From: a virus
IMG/VR virus record: IMGVR_UViG_3300031963_000072
Location: 17,921-81,920 of that record
Length of the DNA stretch: 64,000 nucleotides
Direction: 5' to 3' (one strand)
Positions 11,048 to 25,672 of the stretch are shown here, in pieces. The translations under genes were made by a program, and so were the position numbers. Each line of letters starts with the position of its first letter. Within the stretch, counting starts at the first letter, position 1. Below the pieces are notes generated by a model. That model was not told the DNA's origin, did no database searches, and worked only from the letters and a program-made list of their open reading frames with translations.

Positions 11048-11309
11048 ATTCGTTCTCCAGTGTGTCTTTGTCAACAATGAATAGCTTTCCCTCGGGTGTC
11101 TTAAGAATGGCATCTCTCGGTCCCACAGAAACTACCGTATATAAAATACCGTTGCGCTTAATTTTTAAGTCGGGTGAAAGAAGTGTCTTTTCTTTTCCGT
11201 CAACATTACCTTTAAAAGTAGCATCAACTTCTTCTGTAAGTCGAGCGAGTCTTGTTTCCCATTCTTCTCTCATAATTCTTATGATATCTGCGTCTTCAAG
11301 CTTCTTCAT
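11037..11309 (-). CDS. hypothetical protein (IIRIMREE motif)
   Basis: 90 aa; ATATTTA 6 nt upstream. Confidence 0.7.
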   Translation of the reverse strand: MKKLEDADIIRIMREEWETRLARLTEEVDATFKGNVDGKEKTLLSPDLKIKRNGILYTVVSVGPRDAILKTPEGKLFIVDKDTLENEYVI

Positions 11310-11739
11310 GACTACTAAATATAACGTCAGAAAATCTATTTACGACAATGCCGCACGTTCGCAATATAGTCAATCCTGACACGTCTCTATATTCTTGATC
11401 ATAAACTACTTCAGATATGTTGGCGTTCACTATTAACTTGGCACATTGCTGACACGGAGAGTGGGTCAAGTACATGATCTTGTTGCGATTGAAATTGTAA
11501 TCACATTTGACCAAGGCATTGACTTCAGCGTGAATAAATCCACTGTGTCCTGGATCATTTGAGTCTGGTTGATGTGGACCACCTCTGTAATTTCCATTGT
11601 ATCCAAGAGCAAGCAGCCTTGTGTTATCATCGGATACAATGATTGTGCCTACCTTTAGCCTTGGGTCATAAGACCTTTCAGCTACAGTCTTGGCTATGGT
11701 CATCCACGTCTGATGCCACGTAGGTCTATTGACTTCCAT
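11296..11739 (-). CDS. dCMP deaminase
   Basis: GYNG, HAEVNAL, SPCQQC Zn-deaminase motifs. Confidence 0.92.
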   Translation of the reverse strand: MEVNRPTWHQTWMTIAKTVAERSYDPRLKVGTIIVSDDNTRLLALGYNGNYRGGPHQPDSNDPGHSGFIHAEVNALVKCDYNFNRNKIMYLTHSPCQQCAKLIVNANISEVVYDQEYRDVSGLTILRTCGIVVNRFSDVIFSSHEEA

Positions 11740-12307
11740 GTATTTTCTGTCTCTGGTCTATGGAGAGGTGGTGTGAATAGCATCTCGGCTCATACAGTTC
11801 TGAACCGCCAACTTCTATTTCTTCTCCTCCTGTCTGTTTCTTGTGCGTATAGTGTGCATCTCTACCACACACAGTACAGACTGCAGTGCATTTCTCGACC
11901 TGGGTTGCCCAAACTAGCATTTTTTCTATTTCGCTAAATGGTTTTCCTGCAGCTGACATTTCAAGAGAAGAAACAACTATTGTGAATCCATAAGTAAAAA
12001 GCCACGTCAAAGCATCTGCTGAACCTGGTATCATAAAAGCTTCATCGACTGCAACAACGTGCGGTTCTTCATCGAGGCTTGTCAGATATTCAAGTATTTC
12101 AGCCCCTGTTTTTACACATACGGCCGGGACCTTCCAACCGCTATGAGTGGCAACTTCACTATAGCTGTATCTATCGTCTATATTTGGCTTAAAGATTACA
12201 ATCTTTTTATGCTGATATTTGTATTTTTCAAGAGTTGAAAGAAGGCGACTTGTTTTTGAAGAAAACATTGGCCCGCAGTAAACAATAAACTCTGGGTTAT
12301 TTAGCAT
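11726..12307 (-). CDS. tdk: thymidine kinase
   Basis: GPMFSSKT, DEA, CTVC...EPRC; start moved to MLNNP. Confidence 0.92.
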   Translation of the reverse strand: MLNNPEFIVYCGPMFSSKTSRLLSTLEKYKYQHKKIVIFKPNIDDRYSYSEVATHSGWKVPAVCVKTGAEILEYLTSLDEEPHVVAVDEAFMIPGSADALTWLFTYGFTIVVSSLEMSAAGKPFSEIEKMLVWATQVEKCTAVCTVCGRDAHYTHKKQTGGEEIEVGGSELYEPRCYSHHLSIDQRQKIHGSQ

Positions 12308-13269
12308 TTCTTTACCTCGTACCCTTTTACGATATCCCAGTTCTCTTCGTACCAAGCTATTGTTCTATCAAGACCTTCCCAAAATTGAACTTCAGGAACA
12401 TATCCAATTTCTGACTTAATCAAAGACAAGTTTGCGTGCGTGTGCATCACATCACCAGGTCGCCAAGGAGCTGTAACATACTTTGCATCTGGATACTTTT
12501 TAATTAAAAAATTAAGAATTTCTATGTTTTTCGTTTTGCTTCCACACGCGACGTTAAAATAATCTCCGTGAAATTCTTTTTCAGAAATGGCTGCCTTGTA
12601 GAAGGCCTGCGTTGCGTTGTCTACGTAACATAAGTCTCTTGATTGTGATCCGTCTCCGTCAGATCTCATGGGTTTTCCGCTTTTTATCGCAGTTAACCAG
12701 GCAGAAACAGCAGTTGAGTAAGGAGATCCGCCAAGCTGTCTAGGACCGAATACATTGAATAATCGCAAGCTTGCAGATTCAAGCTTATAATGCATCCAAT
12801 ATTGAATCAAATAGTCTTCTACGATAGACTTTTGCAAAGCATAGGGTGACTTAGGATTCTTCTGATATTCTTCTGAAGTAGGTAAAGTATCAGCGCCTCC
12901 GTAAACAGAAGAGGAGGAGGCAAATATAAATCTCTTTATATTCTTATTTGTGCAAGCATTGACTAAAGAAAGAGTCTTGGTCACGTTTGTTTCATGTGAC
13001 TCAAGTGGGTGGTCGACAGAAAAAGAAACTCTTGGAATTGCCGCCAAATGAAAAACGTAGTCGTATGTTTTATCCTCAATCTTCCGCAAAACTTCTCTGG
13101 AAGAAAAATCGTCGCAAAGAAATTCTTTGACAGACGGATTGACGTATTCCTTGTAACCGCTAGCCAGATTATCTACTACGGTGACTTCCCAACCATTAGA
13201 AATTAATCTGTCGGTCAAATGACTTCCAATGAATCCTGCACCGCCTGTTACTAATGCTCTTTTTTTCAT
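12301..13269 (-). CDS. NAD-dependent nucleotide-sugar epimerase/dehydratase
   Basis: TGGAGFIG, SSSSVYG, YALQK, NVFGP. Confidence 0.92.
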   Translation of the reverse strand: MKKRALVTGGAGFIGSHLTDRLISNGWEVTVVDNLASGYKEYVNPSVKEFLCDDFSSREVLRKIEDKTYDYVFHLAAIPRVSFSVDHPLESHETNVTKTLSLVNACTNKNIKRFIFASSSSVYGGADTLPTSEEYQKNPKSPYALQKSIVEDYLIQYWMHYKLESASLRLFNVFGPRQLGGSPYSTAVSAWLTAIKSGKPMRSDGDGSQSRDLCYVDNATQAFYKAAISEKEFHGDYFNVACGSKTKNIEILNFLIKKYPDAKYVTAPWRPGDVMHTHANLSLIKSEIGYVPEVQFWEGLDRTIAWYEENWDIVKGYEVKKC

Positions 13270-13283
13270 AGGGTTAATTTAAG

Positions 13284-13601
13284 CTATTTTAGAATTCTTT
13301 TTATAATTTGAGTCTTGAATTTTTCTGGGAATTCAAATTGATCAGCATAATAAACGATAGACTCGTTCCACTCTTTCACCAGATGAGATTCTTCAACACC
13401 TGCCATGTCTTGTTCAATCTCAGTCCAGATTCTATGCAACAATTTCTTGTCGTTGATTACGTTGAAGTCTTCAGAAGCTGCCTCTACAAGATAGACAAAA
13501 TTTTCAAAATTCTTAGGAGGTAATCTCCTCTCAATTACGATCTTTTTTATCTGATCCTGAAGAGAATCCCTGATAATTTTCTTTATTTGATAAATGTCCA
13601 T
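13284..13601 (-). CDS. hypothetical protein (QIKKIIRDSL motif)
   Basis: 105 aa; ATAATTA 4 nt upstream. Confidence 0.65.
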   Translation of the reverse strand: MDIYQIKKIIRDSLQDQIKKIVIERRLPPKNFENFVYLVEAASEDFNVINDKKLLHRIWTEIEQDMAGVEESHLVKEWNESIVYYADQFEFPEKFKTQIIKRILK

Positions 13602-24323: not shown

Positions 24324-24342
24324 TCTTGTATCCTTCGTCTGA

Positions 24343-24349
24343 TAACTAT
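24343..24349 (-). promoter_or_regulatory. class B (putative late) promoter ATAGTTA
   Basis: One of 17 ATAnTTA sites located just upstream of starts. Confidence 0.55.
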
Positions 24350-24359
24350 GAAGGTAATG

Positions 24360-25298
24360 TCAGAGGGTAGGAATAAATTCAACTGGATTTCTTTCCCGAG
24401 GAACATATACGACGTTATTGATTCCTCTGACCTCTTGATTATAAGACTTCTCAGGAACAAGAACCTTCACGCCATGTTTAGCATATTCTGCAGCATGCTT
24501 TGCAGAATCGTCTATCGCGAAATATTTACCCGTACTATAGAAGACTTGTTTAGAAAGCCAAATAAACTTTTCTGGAGCAAAAGCAACCCCATCTGCATCG
24601 ATATCGTTTCTCTTGAGCCAGGTATAAGTGTCATAGAAGCACGCAAGCTCATTTGACGGTCTCGACGTAAGGATCTGAATCCAGAAACCCTTGTCTTTGA
24701 GATAGTTTAGTAGATCGATATAGACCTCGTCACGCTCGAGCATCGCAAGACCATGACAGTCCATAAACTCTTTGAAATATCCTTCGCTATTAACGCCGAG
24801 GCGTTTGAATTCTCGAACGTTATAGTACTCATCACTCTCAGGATCTATGAAATGGCCGCACTTTTTAGAAGACCACTCGCAGAACGACTTTCTGAAGTTT
24901 GCAAGAACATCATCCATGTCAAAAATAGCAACTGGCTGACCTTGCCACCGCCTGCCAGACAGCCTATGCCTGTAGTGGAGGAAGTCATCCTTTTGACTCA
25001 GAGCAGCTGCAAAATTATTCCCATCAATTTCCCAGAGGTTTAGGATGGCAAGAATATAACGATATGCATCAACAGTCTTATAAAGAATCTTAGCCTTATC
25101 AACAGGCTCAGAAGCACAACGGTGATCTTTGTAATTAACAGACTCAACGATACCTGTCGCCTCTGAATGAAGAGCAAGCACAAGAGTCTTTAATTGTTCT
25201 TCTCTTTGCTCATTAGTAAGGCTGGTGGCCTCGAAGAAAAGGTCCGAGAATGCTTTTTGAGCCTCTAAAGATTCGCTTAGATTTGACCAATTCATCAA
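24360..25298 (-). CDS. degenerate MazG/dUTPase-like domain fused to HAD 5'(3')-deoxyribonucleotidase
   Basis: N-term SEA..I.E...YKDHR...VDAYRY; HAD motifs FDMDDVL, LTSR, K, IDDS. Confidence 0.75.
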   Translation of the reverse strand: MMNWSNLSESLEAQKAFSDLFFEATSLTNEQREEQLKTLVLALHSEATGIVESVNYKDHRCASEPVDKAKILYKTVDAYRYILAILNLWEIDGNNFAAALSQKDDFLHYRHRLSGRRWQGQPVAIFDMDDVLANFRKSFCEWSSKKCGHFIDPESDEYYNVREFKRLGVNSEGYFKEFMDCHGLAMLERDEVYIDLLNYLKDKGFWIQILTSRPSNELACFYDTYTWLKRNDIDADGVAFAPEKFIWLSKQVFYSTGKYFAIDDSAKHAAEYAKHGVKVLVPEKSYNQEVRGINNVVYVPRERNPVEFIPTL

Positions 25299-25672
25299 TA
25301 ATCTTTCTTTAGTCTGTCGTGGATTATTCCATCTTTTCTAACGTAAGCATGAAACAACTCATCAGCATCAATTCCAAGCATCACAAGAACTGACAGGAAG
25401 TAGTTAAAAGCGTCAACATACTCCTCAAGGAAAGCCTCGTGGTCGAAGTCTGCAACTTCTGTGGTCCTGTGAGGCTTCCAGTTCTTGAGGTGAGCAAGTG
25501 ACTCAAACATTTCCTCTACACCCTTTAGAACGGTATCTCTCACGACTTGCTGAGATTCTTTCTTGGAGATGTCGACAGGCCAGTCTTGCAACACAGCAGG
25601 CCTCTTCTCTGCCAAATCTTTCATAAACTTCTCTCGAAGCTGAAGCATTTTTGTTAACTTACAACTATCCAT
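25295..25672 (-). CDS. all-alpha NTP pyrophosphatase (dimeric dUTPase/dCTPase/MazG-like)
   Basis: EEMFE...NWKPH...EEYVDAFNYF...Y..K. Confidence 0.8.
   Translation of the reverse strand: MDSCKLTKMLQLREKFMKDLAEKRPAVLQDWPVDISKKESQQVVRDTVLKGVEEMFESLAHLKNWKPHRTTEVADFDHEAFLEEYVDAFNYFLSVLVMLGIDADELFHAYVRKDGIIHDRLKKDY

Follow-up and report, generated by a model that had tools for sequence, protein, structure and literature searches.

The window analysed here, the right-hand 64 kb (64,000 nucleotides) of an 81,920-base IMG/VR virus record (IMGVR_UViG_3300031963_000072; CheckV completeness 25%), is a fragment of an uncultured freshwater jumbo myovirus-like phage, and carries within a block of nucleotide-metabolism genes one that we term kinTS (14616-15527, - strand). 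As judged from an AF2 model, Foldseek comparison, a profile search of Protein Data Bank (PDB) sequences and a motif census, its 303-residue product is a fusion of a P-loop kinase with a minimal domain of the ThyA fold, and its gene is coupled to that of the DnaE-type DNA polymerase immediately upstream. We propose, with moderate confidence, that the block carries out a T4-like, pre-replicative replacement of cytosine, in which a fused dCMP-type thymidylate synthase (TS)-like enzyme and kinase is coupled to DnaE, MazG-type proteins are probable dCTP hydrolases and the remaining genes serve dTTP supply and salvage. An earlier note on this DNA, made from the sequence alone, had envisaged a base-modification pathway built around DnaE that makes a non-canonical, possibly glycosylated, pyrimidine. 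The part of that proposal that stands is a predicted modifier and kinase for a non-canonical pyrimidine, present as one fused protein coupled to dnaE; the parts that do not are glycosylation and a modifying role for a divergent ThyX protein.

The open reading frame (ORF) containing kinTS extends from 14616 to 15599, and Pfam recognizes in it only a weak P-loop match (AAA_28, 1.3e-4). Homologues form at least 124 protein clusters of ~300 residues, none of which, fragments excepted, falls below the length of the fusion; because they are ~303 residues long, the true start is taken to be the ATG at 15527 and not the GTG at 15599. In the AF2 model, built from 29 sequences (pLDDT 94.9, pTM 0.90), residues ~3-147 adopt the fold of P-loop deoxynucleoside monophosphate (dNMP) or deoxynucleoside kinases, matching YorR of B. 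subtilis SPbeta (2axp; Z 14.4, rmsd 2.5, 139 aligned), deoxyadenosine kinase (Z 13.9) and thymidylate kinase (TMK; Z 13.5), and YorR was also the only match (E 0.0052) when kinTS was compared with the PDB as a single sequence. The Walker A loop, GxxxxGK(T/S), is kept in the kinTS of 68 of the 69 loci described below. Residues ~165-303, a domain of ~135 residues, are predicted to form a ThyA fold for which the best Foldseek match was 9iqu, the dCMP hydroxylase AfhB of HY126 (E 7.7e-6), followed by T4 dCMP hydroxymethylase (dCH; 1b5d and 6a9a) and human and mouse TS, with a probability of ~1.0; the tightest local structure alignments span 110-112 columns at an rmsd of 3.4-3.6 Å. A secondary-structure map and sequence alignments indicate that what the domain retains is a single N-terminal strand, a single long helix and the half of the fold that runs from the Cys to the His.

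The residues retained in this small domain are those of an active site. A profile of 23 C-terminal domains, compared with PDB sequences, found T4 dCMP hydroxymethylase as the best match (E 0.0059), with AfhB sequences next, and placed T4 Cys148, Arg168-Ser169, Asp171, Asp179 and His216 in register with kinTS. Across 29 sequences Glu191, Tyr194, Arg225, Arg226, Cys234, Arg254, Ser255, Asp265 and His297 are invariant; we take the Arg-Ser pair to be the equivalent of E. coli R166-S167 and the catalytic Cys that of C146. A motif census of the 67 related loci that have a C-terminal domain showed that the catalytic Cys is kept in 65, that the residues at Cys-3 and Cys-2 are never hydrophobic, and that the position of E. 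coli N177, which aligns with T4 Asp179, is Asp in the window and in every relative (67/67). To our knowledge, a modified dCMP is the product of every phage homologue of ThyA tested so far that has this Asp. In the accessible part of Lee et al. 2026 (PMC13326640), Asp at E. coli 177 (N177D) is linked to a preference for dCMP and the N177-Asp homologues tested make modified dCMP, a polar residue at L143 correlates with non-methyl products, and D169N marks flavin-dependent 5-hydroxy-dCMP synthases. Because all 67 relatives carry Asp at the N177 position, the target of kinTS would be a cytosine nucleotide, so that the non-canonical pyrimidine of the earlier note keeps its modified-nucleotide enzyme and is narrowed to cytosine. 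The D169 position varies among the 67 relatives, 36 of which have Asn, 16 Asp and 15 Glu; the window copy has Asp (RSTD), and thus does not bear the Asn that is the signature of 5-hydroxy-dCMP synthases.

Structure prediction also returned a kinTS homodimer with a score of 0.88, where the best of three controls scored 0.00; the value may reflect likeness to solved TS dimers, and the mark applied is one that 20 of 30 solved homomers and one of 23 single chains attain. The runs agree in at least 96% of contacts with pLDDT of at least 91, the predicted interface lies on the ThyA-type sheet, and Arg225 contacts residues 294-295 of the partner. The predicted dimer fits the shared active site of thymidylate synthases.

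The genomic context of kinTS was examined at 69 IMG/VR loci obtained from a scan with the family alignment. The proteins of the window were sought by tblastn within ±10 kb of kinTS, and further neighbours were found by clustering all ORFs of the loci; some loci end early, and the neighbour counts are thus lower bounds. The gene for DnaE (family C; 15524-19138, - strand; PF07733, 1.5e-48, with finger, PHP and HHH domains) lies directly upstream of kinTS at all 69 loci; the TGA stop of dnaE overlaps the kinTS ATG (ATGA), an overlap of 4 nt in the window. Within 10 kb of kinTS, thymidine kinase (TK) was found at 58 loci, dCMP deaminase at 56, a superoxide dismutase (SOD)-like protein at 46, the NDP-sugar epimerase-like protein SDR1 at 43, an NDT-family (nucleoside 2-deoxyribosyltransferase) protein at 33, the ThyX paralogue ThyXL at 21, and MazG-HAD and MazG proteins at 12 each. 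These neighbours are same-stranded throughout and follow the order MazG, MazG-HAD, ThyXL, NDT, DnaE, kinTS, SDR, TK, deaminase, SOD. The linkage of the block is far beyond chance. The earlier note had made its proposal depend on the linkage of these genes in relatives, and that linkage is conserved, with the DnaE-kinTS pair universal and the others in fixed order. The kinTS protein itself evolves fast, being 33-55% identical where DnaE is 62-77% identical, and a tblastn search with kinTS of 50,697 phage records gave no match.

In the mechanism that we propose, a MazG-type pyrophosphatase would convert dCTP to dCMP, whereupon the mini-ThyA domain of kinTS, as a homodimer, would attack C6 of dCMP with its Cys and install a substituent at C5. 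The D169 position is Asp in the clade of the window, as in T4 dCMP hydroxymethylase, and in more than half of the relatives it is Asn, the published signature of flavin-dependent 5-hydroxy-dCMP synthases. The kinase half of kinTS would raise the product to the diphosphate or, alternatively, feed the pathway by phosphorylating deoxycytidine to dCMP, and the steps could occur in either order. A host NDP kinase would then form the triphosphate, and the modified C would be incorporated by DnaE, whose gene lies upstream and overlaps that of kinTS in translation. Supply of the dTTP branch would fall to dCMP deaminase, TK, NDT, both ThyX proteins and dut.

The earlier note had pointed to a MazG protein and a MazG/HAD fusion, and these predicted NTP pyrophosphatases do lie in the same conserved block. 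The smaller of them, a 125-residue MazG/all-alpha NTP pyrophosphatase (25295-25672, - strand), matches dUTPase_2 (1.9e-5; 25.5 bits against a cut-off of 22.9, over the last third of the model only), phrog_12184 (2e-16) and phrog_173 (9.2e-12). MazG-HAD, of 312 residues (24360-25298, - strand), has a MazG-like N-terminal domain paralogous to the 125-residue protein (BLASTP E 1e-6) followed by a HAD phosphatase that resembles NT5C or the Pnkp phosphatase, its matches being phrog_415 (8.2e-11), phrog_2643 (1.1e-6) and, below the cut-off, NT5C (0.0046). The two genes overlap by 4 nt, and single-sequence PDB searches with both proteins returned nothing usable. The 125-residue protein is a candidate supplier of dCMP from dCTP; the accessible part of Iyer et al. 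2021 (PMC7824862) regards MazG-like enzymes of jumbo phages as possible destroyers of unmodified NTPs.

It should be emphasized, however, that several observations weigh against cytosine replacement. A DHH/DHHA1 phosphoesterase gene lies between those of TK and the deaminase at 35 of the 69 loci, and an IMPDH/GMP-reductase gene (PF00478, 4.2e-70) stands between dnaE and kinTS at 15 (for example L012, and L033:1917-3008). Both are absent from the window, and because they are among the conserved neighbours the region looks like a general nucleotide-supply hub of which kinTS is the unusual member. The MazG genes, by comparison, lie within 10 kb of kinTS at only 12 of 69 loci. With respect to kinTS itself, the Pfam thymidylate synthase model (PF00303) gave no hmmscan match to the protein; six-frame searches with this model returned nothing in G000, G003 and G005 and, in G002, a single match of 12.6 bits (E 0.004) at 47761-47889, outside the stretch around its kinTS. 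The TS-like domain has ~135 residues, where T4 dCH has 246. The folate-binding segments of ThyA, around E. coli W80 and Y94 and in the C-terminal tail, are apparently missing from it, and it might transfer no carbon at all. The folds of dNMP kinases and deoxynucleoside kinases tie for the N-terminal domain (Z 13-14.4, with differences of less than 1). In the kinTS copies of L059 and L063 the Cys, the Arg pair, the Arg-Ser and the His are lost; because these naturally degenerate, kinase-only copies keep the P-loop (the Asp at the N177 position is also kept), the kinase half can, to judge by their sequences, stand alone. Finally, the purge of GAC and GTC at the left end of the record, described below, would be needless if every C were protected against all nucleases.

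It could be argued, therefore, that the block is an ordinary dNTP-supply or salvage module in a phage whose virion DNA is canonical, kinTS acting as a kinase of salvage, with a TS-like domain that serves only to bind or sense dCMP or has some other, non-modifying activity, and the duplicated ThyX, MazG, NDT, TK and deaminase genes merely boosting the supply of dTTP and other dNTPs for a 300-kb genome. We give this account an appreciable, if minor, chance. The conserved phosphoesterase, GMP reductase/IMPDH, TK, deaminase and SOD-like neighbours are what it would lead one to expect, as are a glycosyltransferase (GT) not found nearby, the fact that ThyXL is the only thymidylate-synthase homologue in Geobacillus phage GR1, the two of 67 relatives that retain the kinase with the TS catalytic residues lost, and a TS-like domain that does without about half of a normal ThyA. 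What tells against it is the complete or almost complete conservation of the Cys, the Glu, the Arg pair, the Arg-Ser, the Asp and the His among proteins that are only 30-55% identical, the pattern of a working active site and not of a binding module; moreover, Asp at the N177 position goes with a modified dCMP in the homologues tested, as far as the accessible part of Lee et al. 2026 (PMC13326640) reports.

A sugar-bearing base is the second alternative, in which ThyXL, NDT and MazG-HAD, together with the SDR epimerases, would make a second, possibly glycosylated pyrimidine, perhaps giving two replaced pyrimidines; we regard it as unlikely. Two NDP-sugar enzymes are encoded in the block: SDR1 (12301-13269, - strand; Epimerase, 5.6e-54), an NDP-sugar 4-epimerase/dehydratase-like extended SDR, and SDR2 (13612-14607, - strand; Epimerase, 1.3e-47), an extended-SDR epimerase/dehydratase found in the closest relatives only. 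Both are GalE/TviC-like and score below all NCBIfam equivalog cut-offs, and true orthologues of SDR2 (65-70% identity) occur in L002, L003 and L006 only, the other hits being cross-hits of 23-32% identity. An SDR gene directly follows kinTS at 37 of the 58 loci that have at least 2.5 kb downstream, namely at 15 of 15 loci with Glu at the D169 position, 11 of 13 with Asp and 11 of 30 with Asn, a distribution confounded by kinship among the loci. This adjacency favours a sugar-bearing base, as does a weak UDP-glucose-pyrophosphorylase-like ORF (PF01704, 2.7e-7) ~5 kb before the window, which together with a Nudix protein spans 3.4-5.2 kb before it. In addition, a GT gene and one for an HD protein adjoin NDT in GR1, and NDP-sugar genes cluster with TS homologues in phages that have glycosylated 5-hydroxycytosine, as described in the accessible part of Lee et al. 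2026 (PMC13326640).

Against glycosylation stands the failure of the searches made to find an enzyme that could perform it. The earlier note had seen no GT in the window; this is borne out, and searches with the GT1, GT2 and GT1_4 models were likewise empty in the whole 81,920-base record (25% of the genome), in G001 and in the 87%-complete G005. Islands of five to six GT genes do occur in G002 and G003, but ~100 kb from the block and with the appearance of a glycan island. Models of T4 AGT and BGT found no match in the record, and both models matched no control genome either. Among the gene families common to at least five of the 69 neighbourhoods there was no GT. The glycosylated pyrimidine of the earlier note thus finds no GT in the record or in these shared families, and glycosylation of a DNA base is not supported.

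The second alternative also leans on ThyXL, a 327-residue ThyX paralogue (19851-20834, - strand; Thy1 9.1e-18, 65.2 bits against a cut-off of 24.8). Its model (pLDDT 71.7) matches ThyX and PolB structures with a Foldseek probability of 1.0 and carries a C-terminal extension of ~100 residues (residues 241-296 have pLDDT below 50). The ThyX motif RHR-x7-S-x-R is modified in ThyXL: the RHR is kept, and within the invariant stretch RHRAGTFAAQCTGDR there is Cys for Ser88 of T. maritima ThyX, Gly for Arg90 and Ala at 86, the Cys and Gly changes being invariant both in 12 of 12 sequences and in the copies at the 21 loci. Among PDB sequences the S88C mutant 3g4c matches best (1.8e-6); a single-sequence PDB search gave nothing usable. 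ThyXL is among the best-conserved proteins, with 87-89% identity where kinTS has 47-55%; it has 987 homologues, of which the best 120 share 77-100% identity. The three invariantly changed residues of the substrate loop, and this conservation, would suit a new activity. ThyXL nevertheless retains the equivalents of T. maritima ThyX Arg78, His79, Arg80, Arg147 and Arg174, and could be a plain thymidylate synthase. Canonical ThyX and ThyXL are both carried by five of five related contigs, and because the ThyXL homologue of GR1 is the sole ThyX or ThyA homologue of that phage, ThyXL may, on sequence grounds, be such an enzyme. The divergent ThyX that the earlier note had cast as a modifier therefore lacks specific support.

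The NDT-family protein (19206-19667, - strand; PF05014 6.4e-13, 49.3 bits against a cut-off of 28.8) enters a third alternative, that kinTS and NDT make a free modified pyrimidine base or nucleoside and not a DNA precursor, in the manner of MilA/MilB and BcmA/BcmB in antibiotic biosynthesis. Such a scheme would suit the distance of only 4 kb between the genes for the TS-like C5 modifier and the NDT-superfamily protein, and phage NDT-like enzymes can hydrolyse dNMPs, according to the accessible part of PMC12884076. NDT is, however, of the nucleoside-transferase type and not of the DNPH1 or MilB type, its PDB match being 6evs (5.6e-11) with alignment of the Glu of a W-E-x-G-A stretch, which we take to be catalytic. 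That NDT lies within 10 kb of kinTS at no more than 33 of the 69 loci, all of which have DnaE next to kinTS, and that kinTS is fused to a nucleotide kinase and coupled to a polymerase, point to a DNA precursor, and we consider the production of a free base highly improbable. A bolder extension of cytosine replacement, which strikes us as distinctly unlikely, would hold that the mini-ThyA domain has shed its folate-binding half and uses a cosubstrate or chemistry new to the superfamily, that Asp, Glu and Asn at the D169 position correspond to three C5 products, and that in the Asp clade, to which the window belongs, ThyXL, NDT and MazG-HAD also replace thymine. The DNA of this jumbo-phage lineage, widespread in fresh and marine waters, would then contain two non-canonical pyrimidines, and the SDR next to kinTS might add a sugar to one of these.

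All genes that the earlier note had listed between 11296 and 25672 are present where it placed them, as family matches and, for kinTS, the structure prediction confirm. Besides those described above, the block comprises dCMP deaminase (11296-11739; PF00383 2.9e-21, ComEB-like 3.8e-20), TK (11726-12355; PF00265 2.3e-38), a 105-residue ORF (13284-13601) found in the closest relatives only, and a 75-residue ORF (19667-19894) between ThyXL and NDT that has no family match and occurs at none of the 69 loci. Beyond those limits lies the gene for the 263-residue Fe/Mn SOD-like protein (10322-11113; Sod_Fe_C 1.8e-19, with a weak N-domain). All of these, like all named genes of the block and nearly all genes of the window, are on the - strand, and the junctions within the block are tight, four pairs of genes overlapping by at least 4 nt. 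A strong bidirectional hairpin of 11 pairs (26065-26090), just upstream of the MazG gene, is the likely 5' boundary of the block. In 21 relatives a gene for pterin-4a-carbinolamine dehydratase was observed ~9 kb downstream.

One part of the earlier note's interval does not belong to the module. The genes for a metallophosphoesterase, a 556-residue protein and a 404-residue protein (20892-24323, - strand), which lie between MazG-HAD and ThyXL, were found near kinTS at none, two and none of the 69 loci, respectively. Because of this rarity, and because MazG-HAD directly precedes ThyXL in relatives, this stretch is, judged by comparison of the sequences, a lineage-specific insertion outside the conserved module. 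In the 556-residue protein the N-terminal half contains a KxDG motif of the ligase type and the C-terminal half a cytidylyltransferase-like HxGH motif, the 404-residue protein, of unknown family, is phrog_19290, and the operon possibly serves nucleotidylation or the repair of nucleic-acid ends. As the earlier note had observed, the genes of the ordinary dTTP route are found in another part of the window, at 33.6-42.8 kb: tmk (33618-34208, - strand) and canonical thyX (34205-34864, - strand), which make up the ordinary dTMP route, the ribonucleotide reductase large subunit (35627-38158) and dut (42396-42824).

The window also encodes RecA, a gp32-like single-stranded DNA-binding protein, DnaB, two flap nucleases and a T4-type baseplate protein, and the record encodes an N6/N4 DNA methylase with an HNH nuclease. 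The contigs of IMG/VR relatives reach 284 kb, one being rated 100% complete. Its T4-baseplate, gp32, RecA, DnaB and DnaE genes point to a bacterial myovirus as the source. An actin-like protein (40992-42068, - strand) that sits in this bacterial-type replication region matches Pfam Volactin (9.7e-68), a family named after a haloarchaeal actin; the archaeal-virus origin at which this match hints was dropped in view of the same five genes and of the actin-like gene in GR1. The phage is distant from those in culture: megablast of the 14.4-kb block against the 50,697 phage records gave no match, and DnaE is at most 27% identical to proteins of cultured phages. A profile search of genome contigs for a clue to the host found no relative among 39 candidate stretches. 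Assembled contigs of 14 sequencing runs contained near-identical DNA at half or more of the sampled words, with labels of freshwater or 'fungus metagenome' and dates of 2017-2023, and 11 of these 14 runs carry a flag as a possible source; the comparison covered 20 rows from 17 studies, and shares below 0.5 were not counted. The window contains no tRNA genes, and promoter-like sites are at the level of chance (21 against 21.9 in shuffled sequences). Three consecutive large ORFs (47173-57928, - strand), of 983, 1069 and 1331 residues, have no Pfam or PHROGs match.

The left end of the record, 12.4-17.9 kb before the window, is poor in GAC and GTC (record bases 1-5520). Together these trinucleotides number 0 in bases 1-2170, 2.4 per kb in 2171-5520, 18 per kb in 5521-12000 and, in most of the remaining record, 31-33 per kb. 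GpC is also low in bases 1-2170 (17 against ~50 per kb), whereas CpG and GATC are not depleted. The purge of GAC and GTC could mean that the DNA end which is first to enter the cell avoids a nuclease site locally, or that a modification-dependent nuclease is being avoided.

Several known systems resemble the block in part. In T4, base replacement depends on the dCMP hydroxymethylase gp42, the dNMP kinase gp1 and the dCTPase gp56, together with dCMP deaminase and TK. The block follows this logic in that it encodes a predicted modifier, a kinase and a candidate all-alpha NTP pyrophosphatase, and a dCMP deaminase and a TK besides; T4 gp42 (1b49/1b5d/6a9a) has the same fold as the C-terminal domain of kinTS, is its best profile match, and shares with the window copy the Asp at the D169 position. 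In contrast to T4, kinTS joins modifier and kinase in one polypeptide, with a far smaller TS-like domain to which the Pfam TS model is blind, the polymerase is a gene-coupled, family C DnaE, and no glucosyltransferase was found in the 82-kb record. AfhB of HY126 (9iqu/9iqc), the top Foldseek match, is one of a group of 5-hydroxy-dCMP synthases, with RB69 gp48 and DLP3 gp80, that are likewise shortened, dCMP-acting TS homologues. Asn at the D169 position, the signature by which Lee et al. 2026 (PMC13326640) chose active 5-hydroxy-dCMP synthases, is shared by 36 of 67 kinTS relatives, whereas the window copy has Asp. The kinase of HY126-type phages is separate where that of kinTS is fused; no GT was found here, in searches that did not seek arabinose genes or arabinosyltransferases by name.

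The only cultured phage with a close ThyXL is GR1 (OK896991; 46.9% identity over 93%). As in the block, its ThyXL gene is just upstream of that of a DnaE-type polymerase, with NDT, a MazG-like 'dUTP diphosphatase', TK, a DHH phosphoesterase and an actin-like gene nearby; GR1 differs in having no kinTS (tblastn), no second ThyX and no ThyA, and in having a GT and an HD protein. In GR1 the interval 23909-30175 encodes NDT, thioredoxin, the HD protein, the 459-residue GT, a P-loop NTPase, RNase H, a nitroreductase and the long ThyX upstream of DnaE. Phages with Z genomes (MazZ, DatZ, DmtZ) also use MazG-type and NDT-family enzymes, which remove a canonical nucleotide and feed the modified route, as set out in the accessible part of PMC12884076. 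In that system, however, the nucleotide edited is a purine and not a pyrimidine, and the NDT of the block is of the nucleoside-transferase type. The papers found on GR1 deal, to judge by titles and abstracts, with its endolysin. We found no paper that describes a fusion of a kinase with TS or dCMP hydroxymethylase, or ThyXL; one of the nine IMG/VR homologues tested by Lee et al. 2026 may be a kinTS, and the words 'fusion' and 'fused' are absent from the accessible text of that paper (PMC13326640).

Phages rely on modified cytosines as one of their main protections against restriction and CRISPR, and the enzymes responsible have found use as tools. Because PF00303 finds nothing in kinTS, surveys based on Pfam domains would miss it, yet the fusion is widespread, occurring in at least 124 protein clusters and on 69 IMG/VR contigs of up to 284 kb. 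A predicted modifier and kinase in one protein, translationally coupled to DnaE, constitutes a compact and directly testable unit. The variation between Asp, Glu and Asn at the D169 position would provide a natural series with which to explore how product chemistry is determined in a TS-like domain smaller than any other known.

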